DNA of 64,000 nt from Minisyncoccota bacterium (GTDB lineage: Bacteria > Patescibacteriota > Minisyncoccia > Phycocordibacterales > UBA2100): the NCBI GenBank assembly GCA_031291875.1, contig JARLIE010000112.1, forward strand, positions 114 to 64,113, read 5' to 3'. The notes under the pieces are model-generated. The model made no database searches, was not told where the DNA came from, and saw nothing but the letters and a program-made list of their open reading frames with translations. Positions 1,490-60,400 of the stretch are shown here, piece by piece (the first letter of the stretch is position 1; the number at the start of each line of letters is the position of its first letter). A program made the translations under genes and the position numbers.

Positions 1490-2367
1490 TCCTCGAGAAG
1501 TCCGAGGCGATACACATCGAAGGAATTCTCTCCTTCAAACATATCCGACGGATTCGGAAGGTAGAGGCGGGGGCGTGAGATCTCGTCCGTCGCATCTTTG
1601 AGCAGCCGGTGGAAGACTTTAAAATCCTCGGCGCATTCTTGATAATCGATCACATAGCGTTTGAGTTGCGGCGAGCCGTCAGCGTTGCGCGATTTTTTGC
1701 ATTCATAAATCATGAATCGGCGCACCGGCTTCCCAAACGCTTCCTTAACCGTGTAGTAATTGAAAAGCGCCTGCATCACAAATAGCGTCTTACTCCCTTT
1801 CTGTTTACTAAATTGATCGACGAACTTATGGTCGACGATATCGACGCTTCCCTTTTCGAGTTTGGACTCGACGACGAGATCTGAGATCGCCTTGACCGGA
1901 AGCGGCAAGCCCTCCACCTTGGCCATGCCCGAGAACTCGACACCAAGCACAGTGTGTTTTGGCGGCTTTTCGAGATAGAAATTGATGACCTGCAAGTATT
2001 CCCGTTCCATGCTCGCGCGTTTCGCTTTCTTTGCCGCTTTTGATTTGGCCTTGCCGAAGTTGATGTCGAAATCCGCCGTATCGCGCAAATACTCGAGCCC
2101 AAGTTCGATCGAACCGTCTTTGCCGATGCCCGAATAAAAGTGCTGCAGGGCAAGGTGCGCCGAGCTTCCGATGACGGAAGCCGGATTGCGCGGCGTATCG
2201 TAGATTTTTTCTACATAACGCTTGTACCACGCTAAGGGATTGCGCAGCAGGGCCATCAGTGAAGAGTGGCTCCAGTACTTGATTGGGTACTGCGGTGTGA
2301 GCGCTGCAACTTCAGCGTCGTGCTTCCATTGCTCGAGATCGCTACGAATCTTGGAGGGCACTGCCAT
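1486..2367 (-). CDS. RecB/Cas4-like PD-(D/E)XK nuclease, stand-alone, no Fe-S Cys cluster
   Basis: Motifs SHSSLxxxxxNPxxWYxxY (motif I), ISDLVVE plus VDIVDHK (D...D/ExK), and QALFNYY (QxxxY). Confidence 0.5.
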   Translation of the reverse strand: MAVPSKIRSDLEQWKHDAEVAALTPQYPIKYWSHSSLMALLRNPLAWYKRYVEKIYDTPRNPASVIGSSAHLALQHFYSGIGKDGSIELGLEYLRDTADFDINFGKAKSKAAKKAKRASMEREYLQVINFYLEKPPKHTVLGVEFSGMAKVEGLPLPVKAISDLVVESKLEKGSVDIVDHKFVDQFSKQKGSKTLFVMQALFNYYTVKEAFGKPVRRFMIYECKKSRNADGSPQLKRYVIDYQECAEDFKVFHRLLKDATDEISRPRLYLPNPSDMFEGENSFDVYRLGLLED

Positions 2368-2437
2368 GGCAAAAGTATACCAGCCGCAGCAAGCGGCGCT
2401 TCATCAGGGCTTTTTTGGCCTATGCTATAGTTAATTC

Positions 2438-2959
2438 ATGAAAACAACGACGCTCGCGTGGATCGCTGGCATATTGCTAATCCTGGTTGGTGGCTGGTAC
2501 GTGTGGATGCAAAGCGCACTCCCCGCTCCCCAGCAAGCAGCGATCACGAGCACTACGTCGCCCGACACCTCGAGCAGTACATCGGACCAGAGCACGAGCA
2601 GTCCCAATACAATCCAAAATAATCTTACGCTCGGCACCGATGCTACCTCGACGCTCGGTACCTACCTCATCGGCTACAACGGCATGACGCTCTACGCGTA
2701 TTCAAAAGATTCCACGGGGACGAGCACTTGCTACGACAAATGCTCCGAAACTTGGCCTCCCTATATCGTACCCAACGGCATGCAGCTCAACATCCAATCC
2801 GGCGTAACCGGGGCAAAGGCAGGCACCATCACGCGGGCCGACGGTACTGTCCAAGTTACCTACAATGGCAAACCGCTGTACTTCTACAACGGCGACGTAA
2901 GTTCGGGAGACGTGACGGGCGAAAGCGTCGGCAATCTCTGGCGCGTAGTTAAGCCATAA
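2438..2959 (+). CDS. Secreted/lipoprotein of the 'Yx[FWY]xxD secreted repeat' family (COG4315-like)
   Basis: N-terminal TM/signal peptide and an S/T-rich linker. Two repeats match the family motif: GMTLYAYSKDSTG...CYDKCSETWPP and GKPLYFYNGDVSSGDVTGE...WRVV. Confidence 0.6.
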   Translation: MKTTTLAWIAGILLILVGGWYVWMQSALPAPQQAAITSTTSPDTSSSTSDQSTSSPNTIQNNLTLGTDATSTLGTYLIGYNGMTLYAYSKDSTGTSTCYDKCSETWPPYIVPNGMQLNIQSGVTGAKAGTITRADGTVQVTYNGKPLYFYNGDVSSGDVTGESVGNLWRVVKP

Positions 2960-3025
2960 AAACCACTGAAAGCAAGCGACACCGGTTACGTCTTCATGAT
3001 GTTAGGAGCTCATAATAACTAAACC

Positions 3026-3337
3026 ATGCTTCTCTCTCTTATCGTCGGCATTATTCTCGGGGCCATCGCAGTCGTGTTCGCGTTTCAAAACGTAGCGGTC
3101 GTCACGGTAAGTTTCTTTACCTGGCAAATCAGCGCTTCGCTCGCCATCGTGATCTTGGGCTCCATACTTTGCGGTATTGTCCTTACGCTCCTTGTGCTCT
3201 TGCCGAGCGTTATTCGCGATGAAATCTTTGTGGCGACACTCAAGCGTCAAAAGCGAGATCTTGAAAACCAGCTCGCTCAAACGCGAACTCCGCAGCCCGC
3301 TGCGGCTCCGGCCGGGAACGTCGCGTCCTCGATTTGA
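3026..3337 (+). CDS. LapA/DUF1049-like small inner-membrane protein
   Basis: 103 aa with two TM helices followed by a charged coiled tail (KRQKRDLENQLAQ), the typical LapA-domain architecture. Confidence 0.45.
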   Translation: MLLSLIVGIILGAIAVVFAFQNVAVVTVSFFTWQISASLAIVILGSILCGIVLTLLVLLPSVIRDEIFVATLKRQKRDLENQLAQTRTPQPAAAPAGNVASSI

Positions 3338-3392
3338 TTTCTTCTCGCTTCGGGTATACCGTGGAACCAGCCTAACCAAAAAGGAGGTAGCC

Positions 3393-3803
3393 ATGACCAC
3401 CTGTACCGTTCTTGGCGTTGGGATCTCTAGCTTCGCTCGCGAACAGATTGTCGCGTCTATACACAATGGGTTCGTGCGTCGAGGCCGGACCTGGAATACG
3501 AGCGAGCTGAGGATCGCGGAAAATTGCGAGGAAGCGGTGTCTCTCGCGAGGTCGCATCAGCTCGACGTCGTGCATTTTTGCAACCAAACCGGCATCAAGC
3601 CGTTGCGGTATTCACACAAGTGCGAACAGTTGGCAGCGCTCTTCGAGCTCTATCACGAGCCACCGCTCCTATGTTCGATGGACTACCCGCTGCTGCAGCG
3701 GCTCACGCCAACGTTCGTGCGTCATAACATGCTGATTCGGCACTGTGATCTGAGTGACGGTATTTACCAAAGCTATATACGGCGGCGTCAGAAGACCGCG
3801 TAA
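3393..3803 (+). CDS. Hypothetical protein (136 aa)
   Basis: ATG is 6 nt after a consensus SD (AAAGGAGG). The longer track ORF 3177..3803 is an upstream extension in the same frame. It is followed by a hairpin terminator. No recognisable domain; the N-terminus VLGVGISSF..EQIV is only vaguely WecB/TagA-like. Confidence 0.45.
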   Translation: MTTCTVLGVGISSFAREQIVASIHNGFVRRGRTWNTSELRIAENCEEAVSLARSHQLDVVHFCNQTGIKPLRYSHKCEQLAALFELYHEPPLLCSMDYPLLQRLTPTFVRHNMLIRHCDLSDGIYQSYIRRRQKTA

Positions 3804-7113: not shown

Positions 7114-7371
7114 ATGAGATACGGTATGTATGACGATGACGAAAGTGAAGCGGCACGAAAATTCCTTCGCGAAATGAAGCTCTCACCGAGAGAATGCGAC
7201 GTGGTACTGGGGGTGACGCTTCAAGATCTCACCAATCGAGAAATTGGAGAAAACCTCGGTTTGAGCAAACGAACCATTGAGACACATCGGGAGCACGCGC
7301 TCAGAAAACTGGGCATTCATGGCACCGTTGATCTTTGTAAATTCGTGTTTATTGGAATTGCTCCAAAATAA
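7114..7371 (+). CDS. Stand-alone LuxR/GerE-type HTH transcription regulator (85 aa)
   Basis: LSPRECDVVLGVTLQDLTNREIGENLGLSKRTIETHREHALRKLG matches the LuxR_C HTH. It has its own promoter-like TTGACT-16-CATATT and SD GAGGAGGG upstream, and a hairpin terminator downstream. Confidence 0.7.
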   Translation: MRYGMYDDDESEAARKFLREMKLSPRECDVVLGVTLQDLTNREIGENLGLSKRTIETHREHALRKLGIHGTVDLCKFVFIGIAPK

Positions 7372-7399
7372 TCTGCGAACTGATCACCACTGATCGATG

Positions 7400-7505
7400 A
7401 GCGGGCGACACTGTCGCCCGTTTCGATTTATATACAAAACAATTTCCGAGCGTAATTTTCAGCAGACAAATACGAAAAAGGTCGCCAAAAATGGCGACCT
7501 TTTTC
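7400..7505. terminator. Two convergent hairpin terminators between the luxR-like gene (+) and rpoC (-)
   Basis: GGGCGACActgTCGCCC followed by GTTTCGATTT on the plus strand, and GGTCGCCAaaaaTGGCGACC followed by TTTTTCGTATTTG on the minus strand. Confidence 0.6.
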
Positions 7506-7523
7506 AGCGTAACCCTGTAGAAC

Positions 7524-10500
7524 CTAGCGCTCTACCGTATCGCGATTGCGCTCGATCGACGGAACGTCGACCGGTTGCTGGGATCGGAGATCCGCTTCCA
7601 TTTGCTCGACGAGGTCGAACTTCTTGGAACCGGCGAATCCGGTACCGGCCGGGATAAGGCGACCGATGATGACGTTCTCTTTGAGGCCGACCAGGCGGTC
7701 GACCGCTCCCGAAACCGCCGCTTCGGCGAGTTTGCGAGGCGTGTTCTGGAAGGAAATTGCGGAGAGGAAGGACGCGCGAGTGAGGGAGACTTCGGTGATA
7801 CCGAGGAGCAATTGCTTGCCCTTTGCCGGCTCTTTTTCCGACTCTTTCGCCTCGCGGTTCAAACGCTCGAACTCAAAGTCCGCGACAATTTCGCCGACAG
7901 AAACACTGGTGTCGCCTGCGTTCGTGATCGAAACGCGCGAGAACATCTGCTTGACGATGATTTCAAGGTGCTTGCGCGCCGTTGAAACACCCTGCAATTC
8001 GTAGATGCGAGTGATTTCGCCAATGATGTACTCCTGCGCGCGTTCCTTGCCCGCGAAGAGGAAGAGCTCGTCGAGGTCTGCCGAACCGTCGGTGAGGAAG
8101 TCGCCCTTTTGGACAGAGTCCCCTACCTTCACCACGATCGCGCGAAGTGGGTGGATTCGATACTCGGTTTCTTTCTTGACGCCCTTTGCTGTTTTGGCGG
8201 TAGAAGCGGTTTCCGGAACGATCGTAATGACCGTTTCGTCGCCGTCCTTTTGGATATCTGCGATAACACCAGAGACTCGGGCGATCGCTGCTGGGAGCTT
8301 CGGTTGGCGCGTTTCGAAGACTTCTTCGACGCGCGGAAGACCCATCGTGATGTCACCACCTTGCGTCGCGACACCTCCAGTGTGGAAGGTACGCATCGTA
8401 AGCTGGGTACCCGGTTCGCCGATCGCTTGCGCGGCGATAACGCCTACCGCTTCGCCGACATCGACGAGTTCCTGAGTTGTGAGGTCGAGACCATAGCACT
8501 TTTGGCAAACACCTCGAGCGACTTTGCAGCCGATCGGTGAGCGAACGATCGCTTCCACGACGCTCGTATTCTCTTCGATCGCCTTAGCGTCGTCGCGAGA
8601 GACGAGGTGGCCACGCTTGAAGCCGCCCGCTTCTTCAGCGAGCACTCGGCCCGCGAGACGGTCGGCGAACGAGCCGCCGAGTGTTTCCTTGCCCGGACGA
8701 ACGATCGTGACGCCATCCTTCGTACCGCAGTCTTCTTCGAGCACAACGACATCGTGCGCAACATCGAAGAGACGACGAGTGAGGTAACCGGCGCGCGCCG
8801 TGTTGAGCGCAGTGTCGGCGAGACCCTTACGGGCGCCGTGCGTTGAGATGAAGTACTCGATCGGTGTGAGACCTTCCTTGAGCGAGGCGGTAATCGGGAA
8901 TTCGATGATTTCGCCGCGCGGGTTGGTGATGAGACCCTTCATGCCCGCCATTTGGTGGAGCTGTACGACGCTACCACGAGCGCCTGAGGTGATCATGTCG
9001 TGAACTGGACCGTTTCTGTCGAGCGATTCGACAACGTGCTTGCGCAGGTCATTGGAAACTTTCGCCCAGATTTCGATTGTCATGCGCTTGCGCTCTTCTT
9101 CGGTGAGAAGACCCTGTTCGTAGTTTTCGTTCTCACGAGCGACCGCTTCGCGGCCCGCGTTGACCATTTCTTGTTTAATCTCCGGAACAACGACGTCCGA
9201 GAGCGACCACGTGATACCAGCTTCGGTCGCGTAGCGGAAGCCAAACTTCTTGATCTTGTCGAGGATCTGCGGGATGCCGTCGAGCTTGTAGTGCGTAACG
9301 AGCGAGTGCACGAGGGCTCGCATGCGAGAACTCGTGATTTCTTCGTTGAGGTACGGGAAGTCTGTCGGAAGGACGGAGTTGAAGAGAAGTCGGCCGACGG
9401 AAGTCTCGAAGATCTTGCCCTCGAAGTGCTTGTACTTCGCGCTGTCGGACGGGAGAACCTTGATCTTTGCGCGCAAATCGATCGCGCCAAAGTCGTGGGC
9501 GGTGATTGCGGCATTCGTAGATGGGAACGCTGAGCCTTCGCCCTTCGCGCCCTCCATGGTCTTTGTCATCCAGTAACAGCCGAGCACGATGTCGAGCAGC
9601 TTGGATGCGACAACGACGTCACCAGAACCCGGCTTCAAGACGTTCTTGTTGGCCGACATGATCTTGGCGGCTTCGAGCTGAGCGGCTTCGGAAAGCGGCA
9701 CGTGTACGGCCATCGCGTCGCCGTCGAAGTCGGCGTTGTATGCCGGACAGACGAGCGGGTGAACCTGGATCGCGTTGCCTTCGATGAGAACCGGGCGGAA
9801 CGCCTGGATCGATTGGCGGTGAAGTGTCGGAGCGCGGTTGAGGAGGACATACTTGCCCTTAATCGCCTCTTCGAGAATCGGCCAAACTTCCGGTGCTTCG
9901 TCTTCAATCAAACGTCCAGCGCCACGAATGTTGTACGCGTGTTCGCGAGCAAGAACACCCTGGATGACGAACGGACGGAAGAGTTCAAGCACCATGTGCT
10001 TCGGCAAACCACACTCGTCGAGCGCCAAGTCCGGACCGACAACGATGACCGAGCGGCCCGAGTAGTCGACGCGCTTACCGAGGAGGTTTTGGCGGAGGTA
10101 GCCGTGCTTACCCTTGAGGTAATCAGCGAGCGACTTGAGCGCGCGGCGGCGTCCACCGAAGATACCCAAGACACCTGCGCCGCGGCGCATCGAGTTGTCG
10201 AGGAGTGCGTCCACTGCTTCCTGCAAAATGCGCTTTTCGTTGCGGAGAATGACTTCCGGCGCGTGGATTTGCTGGAGGCGCTTCAAGCGGTTGTTACGGT
10301 TGATGACGCGGCGGTAGAGGTCGTTGAGGTCGGAAGATGCGTGACGACCACCTTCGAGGGCGACCATCGGACGAAGCGCCGGCGGAACGACCGGGAGGCG
10401 TGTCATGAACATCCACTCCGGGCGGACACTCGCGCGGCGAAGGTTCTCAGCCAGCGCAAGGCGCTTCCTGAGTTTGTCCTTCTCTGCGGCACCTGAGTTT

Positions 10501-17055: not shown

Positions 17056-19263
17056 CTATTTGGCGACACGTTCGGCCTCTTCCAGCTTCACCGACAAAAG
17101 CTTCGAAACACCGTCTTGCCCCATCGTCACGCCATACAATTCCCCCGCCGCGGCCATCGTCGCGCGGTTGTGCGTAATAACGATGAGCTGCGATTTTTGT
17201 CCGAGTTCGCGAATCATATCCGCGTAGCGTTTGGAGTTGGCCTCGTCGAGCGCCGCATCCGTTTCGTCGAGAATCAAAAACGGCGGTGGATTGACCTGCG
17301 ACATTGAAAAGATAAGCGCGATCGACGTGAGCGCGCGTTCGCCGCCAGAGAGGACCTCGAGTCCGTGCACCTTCTTGCGCGGCAAGTGTACGGAAACGGA
17401 AAGTCCCGCATACATTGAATCTTCCTCCTCGATCACCTCTTCGGTCTCCTCGTCCAGGTCTTCCTTGCGCGCCTTTGCACGACGCGGCTCTTCGATCTTG
17501 AGTGAGGCTTCCCCGCCGCCAAAAAGCTTTTGGAAGAAATTGCGCAACGCATCGTTGATATGTTTGAGGCCGTCTCGGAATTTCTCGTCGATCGTCTTTT
17601 CGAGTTCCGCGATAATGTCTTTGAGTGAAGCGGCGGACGCCTCGAGGTCGATCAGCTCTTTCGCCAAAAATTCGTCTCGTTCCTTCGTTTGGTTGAATTC
17701 TTTTACGACCGCATCGCCGTTGCCGACACCTGATTCTTCTATCTTAATTTTCAAGCGTTCGATCGAGCGGCGGCGCTTATCTTGTTCGCCGCGGTCCTCC
17801 GAAAGAGCGCCTTCCGGAATCTCATCTTTGTCCCAGCTCTGTAATGCGGATCCGACGAGTGCGACCCCTTCGCGAACCTCCTCATCGAATCGCTGCCGCA
17901 ATCCGGCCAACTGCACGCGAGAGGCGTGCGCGGCATCGAGTTTCGAACGAACTTCGCGAATCTTGGATTCAAGTTCGACCGACTCACGCTCCGCGGCAAA
18001 CGACTGCTCGCGCGTCTGCGCAATGCCGGCGCGAGCCATATCGATATCAGTGGATAGTTTCGCCTCTTCCCCTTCGATTTGCTGCAGAGCACTCGAGAGT
18101 CGTTCCACATCACGGCGCACTTCCTCGTTGGTTTGCGGCGCGGAGCCCGAAAGCCCATCAACGAACGCTCGAATACGACTGCGAACGTCGGTAACGATGG
18201 AGCGCAGCGACGCGACATCTTCCGTTCGCTCAACGTTTGAAAGCGACTCGTCCACTTCGCGTACAAATTGGCGCACGTGCGGCACCGGGACGATTGATTC
18301 GACGGTTACATTGGTCGCTTCGAGCGCACCTTCCGCACGGCCGAGTTCGCGGGCAATTTCCTCGCGTCGACGGCGCACTTCCGAAAGCCTGCCCTCGAGC
18401 TCGCGCACACGGGATTGCATATCGGCAACCTGCGTCTGCACGCCGCCGCCCTTTTTGGCGGACGCTTCGTGCAATCGTTCCGTGAGCGCTCGCAATTCGT
18501 ACTCATGCGCCTCTTTTTCCTGCGAAAGCCGCGCGTCTTCCTGGGTGATCCACGCGTGTTCGCGGGCCAAATACTCACTGAGTTTGCTCCCGAGTTCTTC
18601 CTTGAGTTCGCGAGCCTTCTCGATCTTCTCCACCTGCTGCCGCAGGAAGTGCAAATGCGGTGCGAGTTCGCGGCGCAGCGATTTTGTTTTTTCAATGTTG
18701 ATGCCCGTCTCTTCGAGCTTACGTTCGCTCTCTATCTTTTTGTGCTGGTACAGCTTGAGGCCGAGCGCGTCTTCGACCATTTCGCGGCGCTCGCGCGGCG
18801 AGGCGTTGAGGATACGGTCGGCTTCGCCCTGCGAAATGATTTGATAACCTGAGCCGCCGATGTTGGCACCGGCGAGCAGGCGGATCACGTCTTTCAAACG
18901 CACCTGCGAGCCGTTCATCAGATATTCGTTCTGGCCGTCGCGATAGACGACGCGCTCGATCACCACTTCACTGAAATCGATATCGAGGAGACGTTTGGAG
19001 TTATCGAAAACGACTTTCACGCTCGCGCGGTTTTGTCGCGGCATGGCGGGCGAGCCGCCCCAGATAAGATCTTCGCCTTTTTTGGAGCGCATCGATTTCA
19101 TCGACTGCTCGCCAAGCACGAAACGAAATCCTTCGGCGACATTCGATTTTCCCGAACCGTTGGGTCCAACGATCGAGGCGATCGGTGAGGTGAAAACGAG
19201 TTCGGATCTTTTCCCGAACGATTTAAAGCCCGAAAGCTCGATGGATTTGAGGGCCAGGAACAT
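17056..19263 (-). CDS. smc: SMC-family chromosome segregation ATPase, unusually short (735 aa) with no recognisable hinge
   Basis: N-terminal head with IVGPNGSGKSNVAEGFRFVLGEQS (Walker A). C-terminal head with LSGGERALTSIALIFSM...PFLILDETDAALDEAN...LIVITHNR...LYGVTMGQDGVSKL (signature, Walker B, D-loop). The middle is coiled-coil-like only. Gene neighbourhood is smc-rnc. Confidence 0.8.
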   Translation of the reverse strand: MFLALKSIELSGFKSFGKRSELVFTSPIASIVGPNGSGKSNVAEGFRFVLGEQSMKSMRSKKGEDLIWGGSPAMPRQNRASVKVVFDNSKRLLDIDFSEVVIERVVYRDGQNEYLMNGSQVRLKDVIRLLAGANIGGSGYQIISQGEADRILNASPRERREMVEDALGLKLYQHKKIESERKLEETGINIEKTKSLRRELAPHLHFLRQQVEKIEKARELKEELGSKLSEYLAREHAWITQEDARLSQEKEAHEYELRALTERLHEASAKKGGGVQTQVADMQSRVRELEGRLSEVRRRREEIARELGRAEGALEATNVTVESIVPVPHVRQFVREVDESLSNVERTEDVASLRSIVTDVRSRIRAFVDGLSGSAPQTNEEVRRDVERLSSALQQIEGEEAKLSTDIDMARAGIAQTREQSFAAERESVELESKIREVRSKLDAAHASRVQLAGLRQRFDEEVREGVALVGSALQSWDKDEIPEGALSEDRGEQDKRRRSIERLKIKIEESGVGNGDAVVKEFNQTKERDEFLAKELIDLEASAASLKDIIAELEKTIDEKFRDGLKHINDALRNFFQKLFGGGEASLKIEEPRRAKARKEDLDEETEEVIEEEDSMYAGLSVSVHLPRKKVHGLEVLSGGERALTSIALIFSMSQVNPPPFLILDETDAALDEANSKRYADMIRELGQKSQLIVITHNRATMAAAGELYGVTMGQDGVSKLLSVKLEEAERVAK

Positions 19264-19556: not shown

Positions 19557-20246
19557 TTACCATCCTTTTGCGGCCAGCGCTTTCTCCGCTGCGGCCTGTT
19601 CGGCTTCCTGTTTCGAGCGACCTTCGCCGAGCGCTATTTTTTCGGTTCCGATATAGGCGCCCACAATAAAGGTTTTGTCGTGATCTGGACCGGACTGGTC
19701 GACGAGTTGATACGACGGCGTAATACCGTGCTTTTCCTGCGCCAGTTCTTGCAGACGACTCTTTGCGTCCTGCCAAAGCCGACGCGCAACAACGTCGTCG
19801 GTCTTGTGAAAAAGCTGCTTCCCGATGAAATCGCGTGCGGCTTGATATCCCTGGTCGAGGTACAGGGCGCCGATCAAGGACTCGAACGCGTTTGCCAGAA
19901 TGATCTGTCGCGCGCGTCCGGTATCTTTGGATTCGCCGCGGGAGAGCAACAGAAACTCGTTCATGCCGAGCTTTTGCGCGGCTTCCGAAATAGATTGCGT
20001 GTTGACGAGCGCCGCGCGATACGCGGTAAGGTCGCCTTCCGGCTTGTCCGGGTATTTTACAAACAAAAATTCAGAGACGACGAGTTCGAGCACTGCATCG
20101 CCGAGATATTCGAGACGCTCGTTGTGTTCTCGGCCCAACTCGCGATGTTCGTTGATGTACGAGCGGTGCGTAAACGCCGTTTCGAGCAGTCGCTGGTTTT
20201 TGAATTGGTGACCGATTCGTGTTTCGAATTTTGAGAAATCTGGCAT
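19557..20246 (-). CDS. rnc: Ribonuclease III
   Basis: RNase III signature ERLEYLGDAVLELVVSEFLF plus a C-terminal dsRBD (GPDHDKTFIVGAYIGTEKIALGEGRSKQEAEQAAA). Confidence 0.95.
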   Translation of the reverse strand: MPDFSKFETRIGHQFKNQRLLETAFTHRSYINEHRELGREHNERLEYLGDAVLELVVSEFLFVKYPDKPEGDLTAYRAALVNTQSISEAAQKLGMNEFLLLSRGESKDTGRARQIILANAFESLIGALYLDQGYQAARDFIGKQLFHKTDDVVARRLWQDAKSRLQELAQEKHGITPSYQLVDQSGPDHDKTFIVGAYIGTEKIALGEGRSKQEAEQAAAEKALAAKGW

Positions 20247-20320: not shown

Positions 20321-21232
20321 CTAGCTTCTATCCTTTTGCGCGAGAATATTAATTGCTCGGGTGACGACCGGCAGAATGTCATCGTAAAAGTTGAGGTCGC
20401 CCACGGTTGCGAGCGGAAACCACTGTGCATCATCGAGCCCGCCTTCCCGCTTGAGTGTAAGGTCGGCGAATTCGGCGCGCGCCAAGAAGTAGGTCGCATG
20501 GCGTTTCTTCTTGCCGCCCGGCGTGCTTGAGTCGTTGGCGACGTACTCGTTCTCGCCGAGCTGCTCCTCAAGGGTGCAATCGAGCCCAATTTCCTCCCGC
20601 ACTTTGCGCTTAACGCCATCTTCGTGCTTTTCGCCCTGCTGCAACTTACCCTTCGAGAGCGTCCAGTGACCGAATATATCGTGCACGAGCGCGAGATAAA
20701 CCTCACTGGCCTCGCGCGCATAGACGACGGCGCCGATGAGCTCCTCGATCGGCATTTTCCCGCTTTTGGTGGTGGGTTGTTTGCGCGGCGTTCCGTCTGT
20801 CTTGCCCGGCTCACCGAGCTCGATGTATACCGCGCCCAAAACGCCATTGACGAACCGTCCCGAAGAATTCGAGCCGAACGTCTTAGCGAGCTCGATCGCT
20901 TCATTGATGGCGACTTTCGCCGGTACCTGCGCGCGATCGGCATACAAAAGTTCGGTCAACCCGAGTCGCAAAATATTGCGGTCGATCGCGGCAATTTTCT
21001 CCAGGGGCCACTCCGGCGCCGCTCGCACAATGACCTCGTCGATCTCCTTTTGCTTTGCGAGTGCGTTTTGCAAAAGCTCCTTCATGAAAGGCATGTCGGA
21101 GTCGCGAGCGCCAAACTCTTTGGAGTAATCGGCAAGGCGCCCGACGCATTCGTCGAGCTGCATGGAGGGATTTTGGTCGCGTTCAAAGAGTACCTGGAGG
21201 ACGATCGAGCGGGCTAGGTGTCTGTTTGCCAT
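20321..21232 (-). CDS. nusB: NusB antitermination factor fused to a C-terminal NUDIX hydrolase domain
   Basis: Residues ~1-145 are NusB; [31 protein letters not shown] is near-identical to E. coli NusB [30 protein letters not shown]. Residues ~160-300 carry a Nudix box [30 protein letters not shown] (Gx5Ex7REVxEEIG). Confidence 0.8.
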   Translation of the reverse strand: [303 protein letters not shown]

Positions 21233-21280: not shown

Positions 21281-21544
21281 CTACGTCGTTGCCTCTTTTT
21301 GACCGGTGTCTTGTCCTGATTCACGGAGCGCTTTTTCGCGGCGCTTCAAACGGCGCTCTTCGCGCTTCTTTTGGGCAACAATGTCGATAACGACGCGTCC
21401 CTTGTACATACCCGTAACCGGATTGACGCGGTGCGGGATGTAGAGGTTACCAGCCGAGTCCTTGGCAAGGCGCGCACCTTTGATTGCGTGGTGAGAGCGC
21501 CGCTGGGCGGTTTGGGATCGGTTGCGACGCATTCGAACTACCAT
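21281..21544 (-). CDS. rpmF: 50S ribosomal protein L32 with a basic C-terminal extension (the track ORF is extended upstream; ATG at 21544)
   Basis: MVVRMRRNRSQTAQRRSHHAI is the bL32 N-terminal signature. Confidence 0.75.
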   Translation of the reverse strand: MVVRMRRNRSQTAQRRSHHAIKGARLAKDSAGNLYIPHRVNPVTGMYKGRVVIDIVAQKKREERRLKRREKALRESGQDTGQKEATT

Positions 21545-21609
21545 ATGGGGTGAGAGTATACAGAAAAAAACGATTTTGGCAATGAAGTTCGGTTCCACCC
21601 GGTGAACAC

Positions 21610-22267: not shown

Positions 22268-22726
22268 CTATACGTTCTCTTTCTCGAGCGGCTGCATATA
22301 GACGTCCGCCGCGGTTTGTGCGAGTTCTCGCAGCCACGGATCGGCCTGCTCGAGCCAGCAGTTGGCGCTGACCGGTTGCAAATCAATCCGGTAATACTCG
22401 CAGTACGGAAGTACGACCGAGATGACTGTGCTCATATTTCGAAGGATCGAATGTTCGAGGCCATCGAATGAACCGCTCAAACTCGGCGCAAGATGATTAC
22501 GCAAACGAAGAAGAAAATAGATACGTTCGCGACTCTCACGATCTCGAACCTCCTCGAAAACCGTACTGACGTGCTCATAGAGCGCATACATCCGTCGACG
22601 CTCCTGCTGAGACTCCGGAGTCCGAATCCAGATGTATCTTTTGTTGCGCACGACGAGCGAAGCGAGAAATAGGTCGATAAACCGCTCGATGGTCGGTGCT
22701 TCCGTTACGGCTGATACTGCAGTCAT
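22268..22726 (-). CDS. Hypothetical protein (152 aa), divergent from dnaE
   Basis: SD AAGGGAG 7 nt upstream of the internal ATG at 22726. No recognisable domain. Confidence 0.4.
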   Translation of the reverse strand: MTAVSAVTEAPTIERFIDLFLASLVVRNKRYIWIRTPESQQERRRMYALYEHVSTVFEEVRDRESRERIYFLLRLRNHLAPSLSGSFDGLEHSILRNMSTVISVVLPYCEYYRIDLQPVSANCWLEQADPWLRELAQTAADVYMQPLEKENV

Positions 22727-22838
22727 TTGATGGCTCCCTTCTGCAATCACTCTATCGCGTCATTGAAAATTGGAAAGCTCTGATTCTGGTGTGTGCCGCA
22801 CAAACGGTAGGCGGCCGAGCTTTTGTTATACTTGCCGT

Positions 22839-52517: not shown

Positions 52518-53504
52518 CTATTTTTTAGAAATTACTTTTCTCACCGATTCGGTGATTGCAGGCGCGTCGAGTCCATACTCCTTGAGCAATTCCTGCATCG
52601 TCCCCGATTGCCCGAAGCGATCGCGCACGCCGACAAACTCGATCGGCATCGGAGACCTTTGCGCCAACAGCTCCGCGATTGCGCCGCCGAGGCCGCCAGC
52701 TACCTGGTGCTCTTCGACGGTTACGACCGCACGCGCTTGCTGCGCTTCGCGAACGATCGTTTCTTCGTCGAGCGGTTTGATCGTGTGTACGTTGACGACG
52801 GTCGCGCCGATCCCCTGCCCTTCGAGTTCGCGAGCGGCCAGAAGCGCTTGAAAAAGAAGTGGTCCTGTCGCGAAGATAGCGACCTGCGGTGCGTCGTTTT
52901 TCCAAACGACATTCGCTTTTCCGAATTCAAAAGGCGTTTCTGTAGTCGTCATCAAGGGCGTTTTTTCGCGGCCCAAACGGATGTACGCGGGACTCTTGGT
53001 TTGTGCGATCGCAATCGTCGCCTTGCGCGCTTCTTCGGCGTCGCACGGCGATACAATCGTCATATTGGGTTGCACGCGCATCAGTGCGATGTCTTCGAGC
53101 GCCTGGTGCGTCGCGCCGTCCGGCCCAACGGAGATACCTGCATGCGAACCAACCACTTTCACCGGCTGCTCGTTGATGGAAACGGTCGTGCGGATCTGCT
53201 CATTATTGCGACCGGGCGAGAATGTCGCGTATGACGTAATGAAAGGGATTTTGCCGAATGCCGCCATGCCGGAGGCGACCGTCACGAGATTTTGTTCGGC
53301 AACACCGATCTCAACGAACCGTTCGGGAAATTTCTTTTTGAATTCTTCCATGCGGGTCGATTCCGTAAGGTCGGCGCACAGCGCAACGATACGCGGATCA
53401 TTCTGTGCCGCTTCCACTAACCCACTACCAAAACCATCGCGCGTCGGCTTTTGCTCTTTTGCCTCGAAGAGGTCTTCCCGGAGTTTCTGTTCAGGATTCA
53501 ACAT
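52518..53504 (-). CDS. Transketolase, C-terminal subunit (track ORF 52518..53861 is an upstream extension)
   Basis: Pyrimidine-binding and C-terminal domains (GFGSGLVEAAQNDPRIVALCADL, VGVAEQNLVTVASGMA, GSHAGISVGPDGATHQ). Confidence 0.85.
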   Translation of the reverse strand: MLNPEQKLREDLFEAKEQKPTRDGFGSGLVEAAQNDPRIVALCADLTESTRMEEFKKKFPERFVEIGVAEQNLVTVASGMAAFGKIPFITSYATFSPGRNNEQIRTTVSINEQPVKVVGSHAGISVGPDGATHQALEDIALMRVQPNMTIVSPCDAEEARKATIAIAQTKSPAYIRLGREKTPLMTTTETPFEFGKANVVWKNDAPQVAIFATGPLLFQALLAARELEGQGIGATVVNVHTIKPLDEETIVREAQQARAVVTVEEHQVAGGLGGAIAELLAQRSPMPIEFVGVRDRFGQSGTMQELLKEYGLDAPAITESVRKVISKK

Positions 53505-53511
53505 AAGATAC

Positions 53512-54159
53512 TTAGCAACCGACCGTAGCGTATTTCCCCATACCGACAAAGACCGCATTGTGTCCGGAGCTGCATTGCCCGTTGGTGACGGTCCCGCAGC
53601 GACCGCTGTAATTGTCGACGTACCCGGTCGGAAAATCGTCCATATTTTCAGGCGTTCGCCAAACCAAGACGCAATAGTCATCCGCTCCGTAGGTGTCTTG
53701 GTAGAGATACCCTGCATCGCCGCCGATGTTTTTGGGATCGGCAAGCGGAGAGATATACGGCGCGAGAACCTGTGAAAGTGTGCCGATTTGTATTGAGCCG
53801 TTGGGCGTCGAGCAAAGTTGCTTCGGCGCATATGCTCCACTATCGAAGCTGCTCCAAACACCTAACGCACCGCTGCAGCTGTAGGGGTAGTGGCCAGTAG
53901 TGGCATGGTAGAGCTCGAGTGCGTTTTGGAACGATCGCATATCCTCAAGCCGTTTCGCGTCGCGAGATTTGTAGCGACCATTATTTAGGCTCGCGAGAAT
54001 AATGCTCGCAAGTAAACCGATGAGCGCAATGACGACCAAGAGTTCGATGAGGGTGAACCCCCGTTCGAGCGAGGTGATCGTGAGCTTTTTTGCAAGACGA
54101 ATATCAGATTCATTGACGTTTGTCGCAAAATTCCTCGAGAGAGTCTTCATAAAATCCAT
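53512..54159 (-). CDS. Type IV pilin / pseudopilin-like protein with a long leader (prepilin signal ...LERG|FTLIELLVVIALIGLLASI)
   Basis: N-terminal methylation/cleavage motif GFTLIEL followed by a hydrophobic helix. Four Cys in the C-terminal domain. Located between the tktN and tktC genes with 1-7 nt gaps. Confidence 0.75.
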   Translation of the reverse strand: MDFMKTLSRNFATNVNESDIRLAKKLTITSLERGFTLIELLVVIALIGLLASIILASLNNGRYKSRDAKRLEDMRSFQNALELYHATTGHYPYSCSGALGVWSSFDSGAYAPKQLCSTPNGSIQIGTLSQVLAPYISPLADPKNIGGDAGYLYQDTYGADDYCVLVWRTPENMDDFPTGYVDNYSGRCGTVTNGQCSSGHNAVFVGMGKYATVGC

Positions 54160-54160
54160 A

Positions 54161-55021
54161 CTACTGGTGTTCGCTTTGGATTTTACCACCCATGGTTCGC
54201 AACTCATTCAGAAAGACGTTGCCCTCCTCTTGCGTCGGCGGCTTACCGTGCCACCGATAATCACCTTCGATTTCTTTGATGCCTTTGCCGGGGATCGTGT
54301 GGGCGATGATGAGCGTCGGTTTTTCCGCGATCGCCTTCGCCTCGTCGCACGCGGCGATGAATTGCGGGATATTGTGACCGTCGACTTCAAGCACGTGCCA
54401 GCCGAACGCTTCATACTTCTCGCGCAACGGTTCGAGCGGCATGATCGACTCGGTGTAACCGTCGATTTGGATATTATTGCGATCAATAATCCCCGTGAGG
54501 TTCGAGAGCTTGTTGGCACCGGCGAACATGATCGCTTCCCAGGTGTTGCCCGCGTCGTGTTCGCCATCGGACATCGCACAATAAATCCTAACCTTCGAAG
54601 CATCCATGCGCGCGGCGTATGCCATCCCGGCAGCTTGCGAAAGACCTGAGCCCAAAGGGCCGGAGGTGGTTTCGAGTCCGGGCAAGCGAACGCGTTCGGG
54701 GTGCCCTTGGAGACGAGAGCCGAATTTGCGTAGGGTCAGACACTCTTCAACCGGAAAGTAGCCGGCATGCGCCATTGCCGCGTAGCGCACGGGTACGATG
54801 TGACCATTGGAGAGCACGAGTCGATCACGCTGCGGGTGCTCGGGATTTTTGGGATCGTGCACGAGCACGTGGAAATAGAGCGCGGTAAAAATATCTGCCA
54901 TGCCCAAGGGCCCTGCGGTGTGTCCGGAACCGGCGGCAACCAGCATCTCAATGATCGTTTGCCGTAGCTCGTTCGCTTTGCTGGCGAGCGCTTTTGCTTC
55001 GGAATCCGTGAGGGGTTCCAT
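54161..55021 (-). CDS. Transketolase, N-terminal (thiamine-diphosphate-binding) subunit
   Basis: GSGHTAGPLGMADI, SNGH, GPLGSGLSQAAGMA and DGEHDAGNTWEA are TPP-binding motifs. Confidence 0.88.
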   Translation of the reverse strand: MEPLTDSEAKALASKANELRQTIIEMLVAAGSGHTAGPLGMADIFTALYFHVLVHDPKNPEHPQRDRLVLSNGHIVPVRYAAMAHAGYFPVEECLTLRKFGSRLQGHPERVRLPGLETTSGPLGSGLSQAAGMAYAARMDASKVRIYCAMSDGEHDAGNTWEAIMFAGANKLSNLTGIIDRNNIQIDGYTESIMPLEPLREKYEAFGWHVLEVDGHNIPQFIAACDEAKAIAEKPTLIIAHTIPGKGIKEIEGDYRWHGKPPTQEEGNVFLNELRTMGGKIQSEHQ

Positions 55022-57457: not shown

Positions 57458-60400
57458 TTACGGAGTTGTTGAGGTCGCACTGGTGCTTGTTGAGCTTGAG
57501 GTAGATGTTGAAGCTGTAGTCACTGGAGTGCTGGTGCTCGTTGAAGATGGCGTCGAGGTACTGCTTGAACTGGTCGAGGTCGCGCTCGTCGAAGTGCTCG
57601 TGGAACTCGTCGAGGTCGCAGCGTTCGGATCGACAACGTTCACAATGCGGGTCGCCGTGCCAGTGAGGCCGTTTTGGTCGGTCGCACTATAGACGATGGT
57701 GTGTTGGCCCGCGACCGAGGTGTCGATCGTGATTTGCGACATCGGAGTCGAGGTGGCGCCATCTACCGATGCAGTGATGCCGAGGTTCAAGTCCCCCGTC
57801 GGACCGGTGATCGTTGCGCCAAGGTCGTTGTACGTTGCACCAACATTCACGCTCGCGGGATTGTTGCCGTTCACCTGCAAGACCGGCGAAGTCGAGACAC
57901 TCGAGCTCGTGCTGCTCGAGGTCGACGAACTTGTGGTCGAACCAGTGGAGCTGCCGCTACCTGCGCCCGAGAGCAGCTGATCGAGCTGCGCCTTGGTTAC
58001 GCACGTCTGTGCGCCGGTCGAGTCGGAGATGCAGAGCTTCTGGGTGTCGACCTCGTTGGCATGGACAACCTTGGCGTAGAAGTCCTGGATCGTGTTGCCC
58101 GCATCCGCAAACCAGCTTGCGAGCGCCGATTTGACCGCCGAGAGGAAGCCTTGATCGAGAACCGGCGTCGTGCTCGTCGAGGAGGTCGCGGAGAACGAGT
58201 ACGGGAAGGCGGTAATGCAAGAGCCGTTGAGACAGAGCTTCGCGTTGGTCGTCGTCGCGGCCGTCGAGGTGCCGATGCCGAGGTCGCCGAACTGATCGAT
58301 GACGACGGCTGGCGTCGAAGTCCCCTCGTAGATCGAGATAATGCTCGGCATGGTCGTCGAGGCGTACGTCGCGTTGAAGACACTATTGATGTCTTGGATC
58401 GACTTCGTGAGGTACGGCGTGAAGCCGGCGTAGTTGAGGAGCAAGGTTCCGTTGTCGGACGACGTGACGAGATCCGGCAAGACCTGCTGTACCTGCTGCG
58501 CGATGAAACCGGAGTGCTGCGGCGTGCCGGTCGTTTCTGATTTCCAGTTGTAGTAGACCGGGTTGAGTTCCAAAATGTCGGTGAGCGCGGAAGAGGTCGA
58601 GATCGAATTGATGTTCTTCTTGAGCGTGATGTCGGAAGAACAGTTCACGCTGCCAGCAGTCGGATTGATCGTACATTCGCCGTTGGCGTTCTCGAATCCG
58701 GCGACGACACCGGAGACATTCGAGCTTCCGACTGTGAGAAGGTACGGCGCCGAGCTCGTGCCGATGCTCAAGCTGTTATTGAAGCTTCCAACGCCGTTGG
58801 AGTTGATTGAGAAGGCTGAGACGGACGAGGTTGCGGAGAAGGTCGAAGTTGCAACGTAGAGGTTGTTGCCGACAGAGCGGAAGGTCCAGGCGTTATCGGC
58901 GGCCGAGCCGTCGGCGAGCGCAAGTTGCGGGCCAGTGCTAGAAGCGATTTCAAGCGAGACTGAAGGAGTAGACGTACCGATGCCAACGTATGCGTTGGTG
59001 CTGCTACCAATCGAGTAGAGCGTGAGCGCCGTGCCGTAGGCCCCGGTCGTGCTGTTGTAAGCATTGAAGTTGAGGTTGGTGTTCAAGGTGGTCCCGACCG
59101 GAATCATTTCAATGTTCCAGTTGGTAGTAGTCGAGATGCTGCCGGTCCATGCGTTGCCGGAGAAACGCAAGCGCGGGGAGATTTGAACTGGTGCGCCAGC
59201 AGTCGCACCGGTGTTGTTCTGTAAAATCAAACCATCACTTGAGGTCGTGACAATGTTTGCGCGCGTAAGTGTTTCAATGTTGTTAACTGCAAGTGTTGAG
59301 TTGGCGGTAAACGCACCGAGCGCCAAAACAGGCGTGCCGAAGTGGGTAGTTGAAGTAAGACCAGTCGTTTGTCCGGTGGTCTGAGCAGTGGAATACGGCA
59401 TCGCATAGCCACCTGGGTTCAATTGCGCGCCCCAGGCGACGATCGTTTGCTTGTCGTTGCCGATCGTGACTAACGCTTTGGTATCAGAGCTCGAAGGGTT
59501 GTTTTGAATAACATCGAATCGTCTCCATTGCGACGTAATCGTCACAACATTGGCGGTACCGGTCGTGGTCGCCGTGCCAGTGCCCCAATCGACTTCAAGC
59601 GAAGTAGTTGCGGTGCCGCTCGCCGCGCGCAAGTAGACACTGAATGTCCAGCTGCCTGTAGTGCCGGCCGCGTTTACGAATTGGACAAGCTTTGATCCGC
59701 TTGCGGTGCCGGCGAGCTGCTGCGCCGTCGCCCCGCCACGAGGGTCGGTTTGCGAAGCAGTGATCGTTTCACTCGTTGCCGTCCACGTCGGACTAGAGTT
59801 GAAGGTTTCGGTTTGGAGCAGGTAGTTTTGGTACAGACCGACGTTTAGGAACGGACTGTCGATGTTGTAGAGCTCGGCGACGCTCGTGGTGCCGTTGAGT
59901 GCATCGATCGGCGCGATTGGGTCGGTGCGACCAAAACCGACATTACCTGCTTGCGAGATATGGAAGACGGAACCGCCGGAAGAGCTGGCCACATCGAGAA
60001 GCTGCGTTGCGGTCGAGAGACCCTGGATCGCGAACGAGGCCGCGTCCGTACTGGTGCCGACGGAGACGACGCCGTTTTGGTTGACCCCTCCGACAAAGAA
60101 CGAAGGTGTCGAACTGCCGGTGTTGGAAACAATGAATGCGGTCGGCAAGTTACCAATTTCTACGGCAAGTTTTGCGTACGAGGTAGTGGTGCCAATGCCA
60201 ACCAGGCCGACCGAAGAGTTTGTCGTCGAAATATTGAAGATCGGAATATTCGAGCTTGAGGTCGCGATTGAGAAAGCGTTTTTGGAGTTGTTCGGGACGA
60301 TAATGTCTGACGACGTTCCGAAGGTAAACGTGCCGTTGTCCTGGATAGTAAAGAGTGGGTTGTTGGAGGCGTCGGCTGCGGCAAAAGCATAGCCGGTGCC

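Follow-up and report, generated by a model that had tools for sequence, protein, structure and literature searches.

The gene described here lies in a 64,000-nucleotide stretch of contig JARLIE010000112.1 (assembly GCA_031291875.1) from a Minisyncoccota bacterium; this whole stretch is called the window below. The gene, referred to as nusB::nudix, is a single open reading frame (ORF) on the minus strand that encodes a NusB domain followed by a Nudix-fold domain, with a conserved junction and a variable tether between the two (Table 1). An original prediction made on the same DNA, in which the strand was not given, had proposed that NusB and a Nudix hydrolase are fused in one ORF. This is borne out by the uninterrupted 303-residue frame and by the domain search that the prediction had called for, in which Pfam assigns residues 7-135 to NusB (E=1.4e-30) and residues 177-277 to NUDIX (E=3.1e-12). 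An AlphaFold2 model of the 303-residue protein, built on a 55-sequence alignment, likewise contains two confident folds (mean predicted local distance difference test score, pLDDT, of 90.6), with the NusB helices at residues 4-139 (pLDDT 85-98) and an alpha/beta domain at residues 162-302 (pLDDT mostly >90). A protein identical to the ORF product is found at NCBI in a metagenome-assembled genome (MAG), under the title 'transcription antitermination factor NusB [Candidatus Pacebacteria bacterium]'.

That residues 1-145 are a NusB, as had been predicted, is confirmed by the NCBIfam nusB equivalog TIGR01951, with 115.9 bits where 88.35 is the cutoff, and by PF01029 (106.9 bits; cutoff 23.1). In a search of PDB sequences, residues 7-136 match NusB structures, including that of Thermotoga maritima (1tzt, 5.5e-17), and Foldseek gives a template modelling (TM) score on the target of 0.84 for both 1tzw and 1eyv. 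The motif [12 protein letters not shown]...FVNGVLG (also given as [10 protein letters not shown]...FVNGVL) is conserved among the orthologues, and the NusB domain as a whole has a mean identity of 65.9% (segment identities here and below are mean pairwise values over 80 species-level orthologues). Moreover, E78 and D84 of the protein align in the PDB sequence alignment with E75 and E81 of Escherichia coli NusB, which we take to be residues of the interface with NusE. Together with S10 (NusE), NusB binds boxA in the nascent leader of pre-rRNA. Judged by these matches, the gene is the ordinary nusB of its lineage and encodes its rRNA antitermination factor, for which binding of S10 and boxA is predicted.

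Residues 1-137 thus resemble the canonical NusB proteins of E. coli, T. maritima and Mycobacterium tuberculosis in equivalog score, in fold and in the motif [12 protein letters not shown]-x4-FVNGVL. Those proteins, however, are single domains of ~130-160 residues, whereas the protein studied here adds the GEPGK junction, the tether and a Nudix domain of 140 residues. The closest architectural precedent, and the only well-known one, is RsmB/Sun, the 16S rRNA m5C967 methyltransferase, in which a NusB-like module also precedes an enzyme domain that acts on rRNA, although its partner is a Rossmann-fold S-adenosylmethionine-dependent methyltransferase and not a Nudix domain. Hidden Markov models (HMMs) of RsmB match residues 33-135 weakly (15-45 bits against cutoffs of 269-540), and by these scores the protein is orthologous to NusB proper and not to the N-terminal domain of RsmB.

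The fusion is widespread among relatives of this organism. When one genome per GTDB species was scanned, at least 586 species of Paceibacteria were found to encode a relative. The best 80 of these loci, which were taken as the orthologue set and aligned in 81 rows, are 52-85% identical over essentially full-length matches, the shortest of which spans residues 1-297; their titles include Paceibacterota, Kaiser-, Adler-, Nomura-, Taylor-, Zambryski- and Yonathbacteria as well as Minisyncoccia. Lengths in related proteins agree with this picture: the best 120 protein clusters considered (90% identity; from NCBI, JGI, ENA and Logan assemblies) are all ~303 residues long, and both Pfam domains occur in every one. 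When the Nudix part by itself (residues 156-303) was compared exhaustively with 1.84 billion cluster representatives by HMMER, 843 clusters matched at E<=1e-3, of which 129 reached E<=1e-10. Most of the full-length matches are proteins of 280-320 residues with the Nudix part at about residues 150-300, and among 44 long representatives NusB was found in 40 and NUDIX in 42. Since matches down to ~28-30% identity in the Nudix part still carry NusB, the fusion persists to that divergence. The fusion is the normal state of nusB across Paceibacteria/Parcubacteria, is ancient within Paceibacteria, and is an unusual architecture among bacteria in general. As an observation in its own right, many of the loci (L002, L003, L005, L008 and many more) bear 'uncultured Candidatus Saccharibacteria bacterium' titles while encoding a 55-85% identical fusion in the same synteny; the title, attached to a MAG series from co-assembly, looks like a blanket label unfit for taxonomy.

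The original prediction had regarded the architecture as non-standard, and had allowed that the fusion might prove to be common and already annotated in the lineage. The former view stands for bacteria at large, but not for a lineage in which at least 586 species share the arrangement. As to annotation, the databases hold thousands of NusB-Nudix sequences for which both Pfam domains are precomputed in public records, yet these proteins are named only 'NusB'. No description of the fusion was found in the literature searched, which does not span all journals, so that this lack is absence of evidence only.

A missed stop codon between the domains, a frameshift or a chimeric assembly is ruled out by the continuous ORF and by its recurrence in hundreds of independent assemblies and at least 586 species. 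Apparent exceptions were inspected and rejected. At locus L084 (GCA_013565675.1, JACCDV010735530.1, 542-1459) two genes are called, but both lie in one frame; the break is a single in-frame TAA in place of a conserved Tyr (…GVLGAV*KELGEP…, compared with GAV-Y-KELGEP), with no separate gene start, and from its sequence this TAA is a nonsense mutation or sequencing error and not a natural split. The short match of P0128, which could have been taken for a split relative, is a fragment at a contig end, and P0208, a candidate for a NusB fusion with a canonical box, is a tandem Nudix-Nudix protein. No genuine pair of split NusB and Nudix genes was found among the relatives inspected.

The segment that joins the two domains combines an almost fixed sequence with a variable one. 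The junction, Y-x-E-[LIM]-G-E-P-G-K, has a mean identity of 88.5%, and 7 of its 9 columns are >=95% identical in the 80 sequences. The variable part of the tether that follows has a mean identity of 31.4%, and its core (residues 144-157) is predicted to be disordered (pLDDT <50). The length of the tether, measured over residues 137-161 of the protein, is nonetheless constrained to 22-29 residues in 79 of the 81 rows; the outliers measure 31 and 72 residues, the latter being a mis-picked ORF in L078. The invariant junction, the constrained tether length, the maintenance of the fusion to ~28-30% identity and the lack of a genuine split together argue for a functional coupling of the two modules.

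With respect to the Nudix box, the original prediction needs correction. It had quoted a canonical box ending in REVxEEIGL, but the actual residues are R-K-V-R-E-E-I-G-L. Compared with the canonical pattern G-x5-E-x7-R-E-U-x-E-E-x-G-U, the box of this protein (G195-KLQQG-E201-KHEDGVK-R209-K210-V211-R212-E213-E214-I215-G216-L217) is one residue short, since the RE glutamate is replaced by a lysine (K210; codon AAA, 20603-20605), where Mg2+ is normally bound. This is no peculiarity of one genome: a full canonical box is present in only 27 of the 81 rows, and position 210 holds E in 33, K in 20 and V in 11, the rest being I, A, G, S, T or N. As for the other signature positions, E214 is found in 80 of the 81, G195 in 78, G216 in 74, R209 in 68 and E201 in 62, and position 213 is E in 72 and D in 7.

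With 48.4% mean identity and only 2 of 23 columns >=95% identical, the box is the least conserved stretch of an otherwise well-conserved Nudix domain (58.5%; 30 of 139 columns). In families of working Nudix enzymes the box is normally the best-conserved segment. The strongest conservation is found off the box, in HDxFGxWTLSKG, GENEY, the GGLDDAxWF loop and LNFYDD; W190 is invariant, and D185, T191, K194, Y230, Y248, W271, Y283 and D285 are strongly conserved. A distal acidic pair, D267/D268, is conserved as well, position 268 being acidic in 47 of the 55 sequences of a divergent alignment, A2 (36 D and 11 E). Stand-alone relatives of ~140 residues from the same Nudix clade retain the canonical R-E-x-x-E-E, so the relaxation of the box is specific to the NusB-fused branch. 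Purifying selection on the Nudix domain is clear, whereas the catalytic box within it is relaxed. Because the RE glutamate is replaced or variable, Nudix hydrolase activity cannot be assumed.

Regarding the kind of Nudix domain, structure and profile comparisons converge on the asymmetric diadenosine polyphosphate (ApnA) hydrolases. Foldseek matched hundreds of Nudix structures in the PDB, the top ones being the Nudix domain of Mycobacterium smegmatis MutT1 (5e-9), the diadenosine tetraphosphate (Ap4A) hydrolases of Aquifex aeolicus (TM on target 0.86) and Caenorhabditis elegans, M. tuberculosis Rv2985 ('Nudix diadenosine polyphosphatase'), Thermus thermophilus Ndx1 (an Ap6A hydrolase), Chlamydia CT771 and human NUDT2; asymmetric ApnA hydrolases reach a TM on target of 0.77-0.87, and the ADP-ribose-binding Nudix domain of NrtR (3gz8) also ranks high. 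In the search of PDB sequences the best match of the C-terminal half was M. smegmatis MutT1 (3.5e-5). A family profile made from the NusB-fused family and its stand-alone relatives, when searched against the same sequences, gave the Aquifex Ap4A hydrolase (3i7u, 1.4e-28), Ndx1 (1vc8, 2.6e-24), NUDT2 (7e-22) and CT771 (9e-22), and at lower ranks MutT1 (9e-17), Dcp2 (~1e-12) and Bdellovibrio RppH (4e-10). By family profile and by fold alike, the module is a Nudix domain of the asymmetric ApnA-hydrolase type.

The motifs agree with this assignment in part. The Aquifex hydrolase (3I7U), Ndx1 (1VC8), NUDT2, CT771 and MutT1/Rv2985 resemble the protein in the elements h-W-T-x-[PS]-K-G, x-Y-V-A and Y-[FW]-L-A and in the C-terminal helix; here the elements read H-W-T-L-S-K-G (with Ser for the Pro of the ApnA-type h-W-T-x-P-K-G), E-Y-V-A and T-Y-F-L-A. 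Residues W190, T191, K194, Y230 and Y248, presumably the counterparts of substrate contacts in ApnA hydrolases, are >=90% conserved. The aromatic and basic residues W190, K194, Y230, Y248, W271 and Y283, all of which are kept, are of a kind characteristic of ApnA hydrolases. The differences lie in the surroundings and in the box, since ApnA hydrolases stand alone (MutT1 being fused to a histidine phosphatase) and have the canonical R-E-x-x-E-E, whereas the module described here is fused to NusB and has R-K-x-x-E-E. Two narrower identities were rejected. The domain, for which RppH-like decapping had been suggested, is no member of the RppH family, as NF001936 gives 23.1 bits (cutoff 118), NF001937 13.5 bits (cutoff 139) and NF001938 12.1 bits (cutoff 116). 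For the MutT1-type 8-oxo-(d)GTP phosphatase, NF052459 gives 31.5 bits against a cutoff of 475, and the C-terminal histidine-phosphatase domain is missing, the likeness being confined to the Nudix half.

Eroded boxes in otherwise intact Nudix folds have precedents. The NUDT9H domain of TRPM2, NrtR and CFIm25/NUDT21 are all Nudix folds with an eroded box, which serve to bind a ligand (ADP-ribose) or, in the case of CFIm25, RNA, and the present domain likewise combines a conserved pocket with a degenerate box. They belong, however, to other subfamilies and hosts (an ion channel, a transcription repressor and a 3'-end processing factor), with no link to NusB or to antitermination. RppH, for its part, shares the Nudix fold and is a possible functional analogue, acting on 5' triphosphates and nucleoside tetraphosphate (Np4) caps (PMC8833179). 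The Bdellovibrio enzyme is a distant match by structure and profile, but membership by HMM failed and the present protein lacks the catalytic glutamate at the RE position.

The same Nudix subtype was also found in other settings, where its partner modules bind or cleave RNA with one exception. A 1074-residue protein (P0249; L081 5001-8225, ENA ERZ25069412) combines S1, RNase E/G and thioredoxin-like domains with two tandem Nudix copies whose boxes are fully degenerate (…KNDLGL…, …KGELGL…); its neighbours, an H+-PPase, a polyprenyl synthase and an argininosuccinate lyase, do not look patescibacterial. By its domain composition, this may be an RNase E/G with a pseudo-Nudix that senses 5' ends. 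A cold-shock domain (CSD) precedes NusB and NUDIX in a protein of 577 residues (P0217; L087 3605-5338), encoded between an NB-ARC/STAND nucleoside triphosphatase gene (1867-3567), a DDE transposase gene and a HEPN_Swt1 gene (7120-8217), a context that appears defence-island-like for this NusB-Nudix cassette. Further combinations are N-terminal HATPase_c and STAS-like DUF4325 with CSD, NusB and NUDIX in 855 residues (P0253), and NusB and NUDIX with a C-terminal Rho_N/SAP-like tail in 358 residues (P0160), P0141 likewise having an extra tail. The exception is P0195, in which the partners are sigma-70 region 4 and a DnaA C-terminal helix-turn-helix. A stand-alone Nudix protein of the same clade with a canonical box (P0161; L085 4001-4453) was found amid phage or mobile-element genes (integrase, DNA methylase, Rep_O-like). 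Each of the extra fusions is one cluster from one contig, and they are therefore suggestive only.

Table 1. Features of the nusB::nudix locus, in positions of the window
Feature	Position	Strand	Remarks
nusB::nudix ORF	20321..21232 (stop codon included)	minus	303 aa, ATG start, TAG stop, no internal stop
NusB domain, residues 1-137, seven helices	20822..21232	minus	Pfam PF01029 1.4e-30, TIGR01951
Junction motif Y-I-E-L-G-E-P-G-K, residues 136-144	20801..20827	minus	nearly invariant in orthologues
Inter-domain tether, residues 138-161	20750..20821	minus	sequence variable, length constrained
Nudix-fold domain, asymmetric ApnA-hydrolase type (by profile and fold), residues 162-303	20324..20749	minus	Pfam PF00293 3.1e-12
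Nudix box, residues 195-217 ([23 protein letters not shown])	20582..20650	minus	non-canonical at K210
rnc (RNase III)	19557..20246	minus	Pfam Ribonucleas_3_3 1.6e-39 + dsrm
rpmF (ribosomal protein L32)	21281..21544	minus	Pfam Ribosomal_L32p 3.8e-08
Weak sigma-70-like match, candidate operon promoter, TTGCCA-16-TATACT	21555..21582	minus	upstream of rpmF, 10/12 matches

In the window, nusB::nudix belongs to a minus-strand row of core information-processing genes (rpoC, rpoB, trmD, rpsP, smc, rnc, nusB::nudix, rpmF and rnhB), with dnaE divergent. The gene directly downstream on the same strand, after a gap of 74 nucleotides, is rnc, and this adjacency holds in 79 of the 80 loci with a median gap of 48 nucleotides. 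After rnc comes smc in 70 of the 80, and rnhB lies upstream in 65; the order is nearly always rpmF - nusB::nudix - rnc - smc. The position of rpmF directly upstream is also occupied in L084, L086 and L089, and the highly divergent L086 and L089 keep the order L32 - NusB::Nudix - RNase III. Promoter-like sites in the region do not exceed the number expected from shuffled sequence, and no terminator-like site on the minus strand was found between nusB::nudix and rnc; as these counts are at chance level, the promoter and terminator result is weakly informative. A search of the 64,000 nucleotides in six frames with a regular expression for the box found no second Nudix gene, and Pfam found no second NusB or Nudix domain among the ~30 other ORFs of the window.

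Several other features of the window deserve mention on their own account. The SMC homologue (17056-19263, minus) has only 735 residues, with SMC_N matching at both ends (residues 5-720), and its homologue in L086 has 696; typical bacterial SMC proteins have ~1150-1200, so a strongly shortened coiled coil or hinge is implied for the lineage. Between rnhB and dnaE lies an ORF of 160 residues (22268-22750, minus) with no Pfam match and no tblastn match in the 80 loci, which is a strain-specific insertion, if a real gene at all. Transketolase is split over two ORFs ~300 nucleotides apart (52518-53861 and 54161-55021, both minus), its pieces being an N-terminal thiamine pyrophosphate-binding part of 286 residues and a part of 447 residues with the pyrimidine-binding and C-terminal domains. 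Finally, an ORF of 2128 residues (57458-63844, minus) carries Peptidase_S74 (endosialidase intramolecular chaperone) at residues 1737-1794 and a bacterial surface Ig-like domain, and by this domain content it is a giant surface or fibre-like protein. Proteins of this kind have often been proposed to serve host attachment in bacteria of the candidate phyla radiation (CPR).

RNase III releases the rRNA leader, and RNase E/G is sensitive to RNA 5' ends. Against this background we tentatively take the Nudix module to be a reader on a tether, or else a slow processor, for nucleotide-polyphosphate groups carried by RNA 5' ends, a reading that we hold to be possible though short of probable. NusB, with S10, would sit on boxA in the nascent pre-rRNA leader, and the tether of ~25 residues would let the Nudix pocket reach a nearby nucleotide-polyphosphate group, the likeliest being the 5'-triphosphate or the nucleoside polyphosphate (Np(n))-capped 5' end of the same leader RNA. 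The module would recognise this 5' group, and members with an intact box, which may be catalytically active, would hydrolyse it. As a consequence, the 5' end of the leader would be tied to the antitermination and processing complex, and decay of the leader would be licensed after RNase III cleavage. The leader 5' end is a candidate ligand because relatives of the domain act on such ends, because the partners are RNA proteins and because rnc adjoins the gene. In this regard, NUDT2 turns triphosphorylated into monophosphorylated RNA (PMC8616924), Np4 caps are removed by RppH, and dinucleoside polyphosphates (NpnN) act as bacterial RNA caps (PMC8833179, PMC7044304). For the protein of this window, with R-K-V-R-E-E, binding or at most slow hydrolysis would be expected, since the RE glutamate is a lysine and the NUDT9H domain of TRPM2, a Nudix domain without the box glutamate, binds its ligand and is catalytically inactive (PMC4974056). 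The original prediction had suggested that boxA-RNA binding is coupled to nucleotide or RNA 5'-end chemistry; this still seems the most attractive interpretation, to which the other fusion partners (RNase E/G, the cold-shock domain and Rho_N) and the conserved adjacency of rnc lend indirect support, although membership of RppH and the assumption of hydrolysis had to be given up.

A number of observations weigh against the module being a reader of the leader 5' end. Free ApnA or other nucleotides would suit the Nudix fold equally well. Within the window there is no rRNA gene, Rfam having found one tRNA only, and no boxA at <=1 mismatch from a consensus that is of the E. coli type and may not apply to this lineage, so that the boxA result is uninformative and does not count as a negative. 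AlphaFold2 predicts no fixed packing between the domains, as judged from the predicted TM score (pTM) of 0.55 and the disordered tether. Furthermore, each of the fusions with RNase E/G and CSD comes from just one cluster on one contig. The acidic residues can be turned against this reading in both directions: the retention of E214, E213/D213 and D267/D268 could mean that catalysis is kept through another arrangement of base or metal, while the loss of E213 and E214 in some divergent representatives could point to a ligand other than a metal-phosphate.

There is a first rival, in which NusB delivers to nascent rRNA a fully active RNA 5' pyrophosphohydrolase, decapping enzyme or ApnA hydrolase for which the RE position is non-essential. 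We consider this rather unlikely. It is favoured by the near-constancy of E214, of an acidic residue at position 213 and of G195, by the acidic residue at position 268 in most of alignment A2, and by the third of orthologues with a perfect box; besides, the nearest relatives are active ApnA hydrolases, members of the group act on RNA 5' ends (PMC8616924, PMC8833179), and Nudix enzymes are known to differ in their catalytic base (PMC4974056). A box that is the worst-conserved part of the domain speaks against it, as do the Lys, Val, Ile, Ala or Gly found at the Mg-binding glutamate in most species, the frequent loss of E201 and R209, the 'RE' kept by stand-alone relatives that are presumably true enzymes, and RppH and MutT scores far under their cutoffs. 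Instead of an enzyme, and with about the same probability, the module might be a small-molecule sensor, binding a free nucleotide (an ApnA alarmone, ADP-ribose, a nucleoside triphosphate or the like) and thereby tuning the engagement of NusB with S10/boxA, which would link rRNA synthesis to the metabolic state in regulator-poor organisms, in the manner of NrtR and of NUDT9H in TRPM2. Pocket residues conserved around an eroded box, structural likeness to the NrtR domain and the precedent of inactive, ligand-binding Nudix domains (PMC4974056) are all consistent with such a role; it is countered by the fact that no stable inter-domain interface is predicted through which a signal could pass, and by the other partners of the subtype, which bind or cleave RNA and are not regulators.

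The fold might also have a purely structural part in the antitermination complex, as a chaperone or as a module for protein-protein contacts, possibly offsetting factors missing from reduced genomes. SuhB, with an inositol-monophosphatase fold, serves non-enzymatically in this way in the rrn antitermination complex of E. coli, and among the matches of the PDB sequence search are 6TQN and 6TQO, which we take to be structures of that complex with SuhB. Conservation that is strongest off the box, in the four motifs listed above and the GEPGK junction, together with catalytic residues that are dispensable in many members, would fit a structural subunit. The conserved residues, however, correspond by motif to the phosphate- and base-binding positions of ApnA hydrolases and not to an obvious new surface, and EE and DD are retained; we judge this explanation distinctly improbable. 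Least credible by far is that the fusion is an artefact (missed stop, frameshift or chimera) or a chance joining without functional coupling in a streamlined genome. The stop between the modules in L084, and genome streamlining, which favours fusions, could be cited for it, but that stop is one TAA at a conserved Tyr codon with no gene start behind it, the same ORF recurs in hundreds of independent assemblies, the junction is invariant, the tether length is constrained and the fusion is kept to ~28% identity. The artefact half of this proposal is effectively refuted.

Returning to the tethered reader of RNA 5' ends, a bolder version of it would extend to a whole CPR class. In that version, which we regard as an unlikely one, NusB throughout the class would include a Nudix module, largely without catalysis, that reads the 5' end of the transcript (a triphosphate or a dinucleoside-polyphosphate cap) and physically couples the chemical state of this end to antitermination, RNase III processing and leader turnover; NusB-Nudix with a CSD would have been recruited to defence-island-like loci, and the same subtype would serve as a 5'-end sensor on RNase E/G.

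NusB is among the most conserved and best understood single-domain transcription factors, and a lineage-wide appendage to it, whether enzymatic or ligand-binding, is absent from the literature found. If the module were a mere housekeeping ApnA hydrolase fused by chance, the outcome would be a modest annotation fix, namely the renaming of these proteins as NusB/Nudix fusion proteins. The series from canonical to eroded boxes within one orthologous family offers a ready system for the transition from enzyme to pseudo-enzyme. Should the module, on the other hand, act on RNA 5' polyphosphates or Np(n) caps, by reading or by trimming them, the finding would join the field of non-canonical RNA 5' ends to that of rRNA antitermination and processing. 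Coupling of the 5'-end state to antitermination would, if true, be a new principle for the rRNA transcription machinery, and would provide a handle on the control of ribosome synthesis in the regulator-poor, ultra-small bacteria of the CPR.

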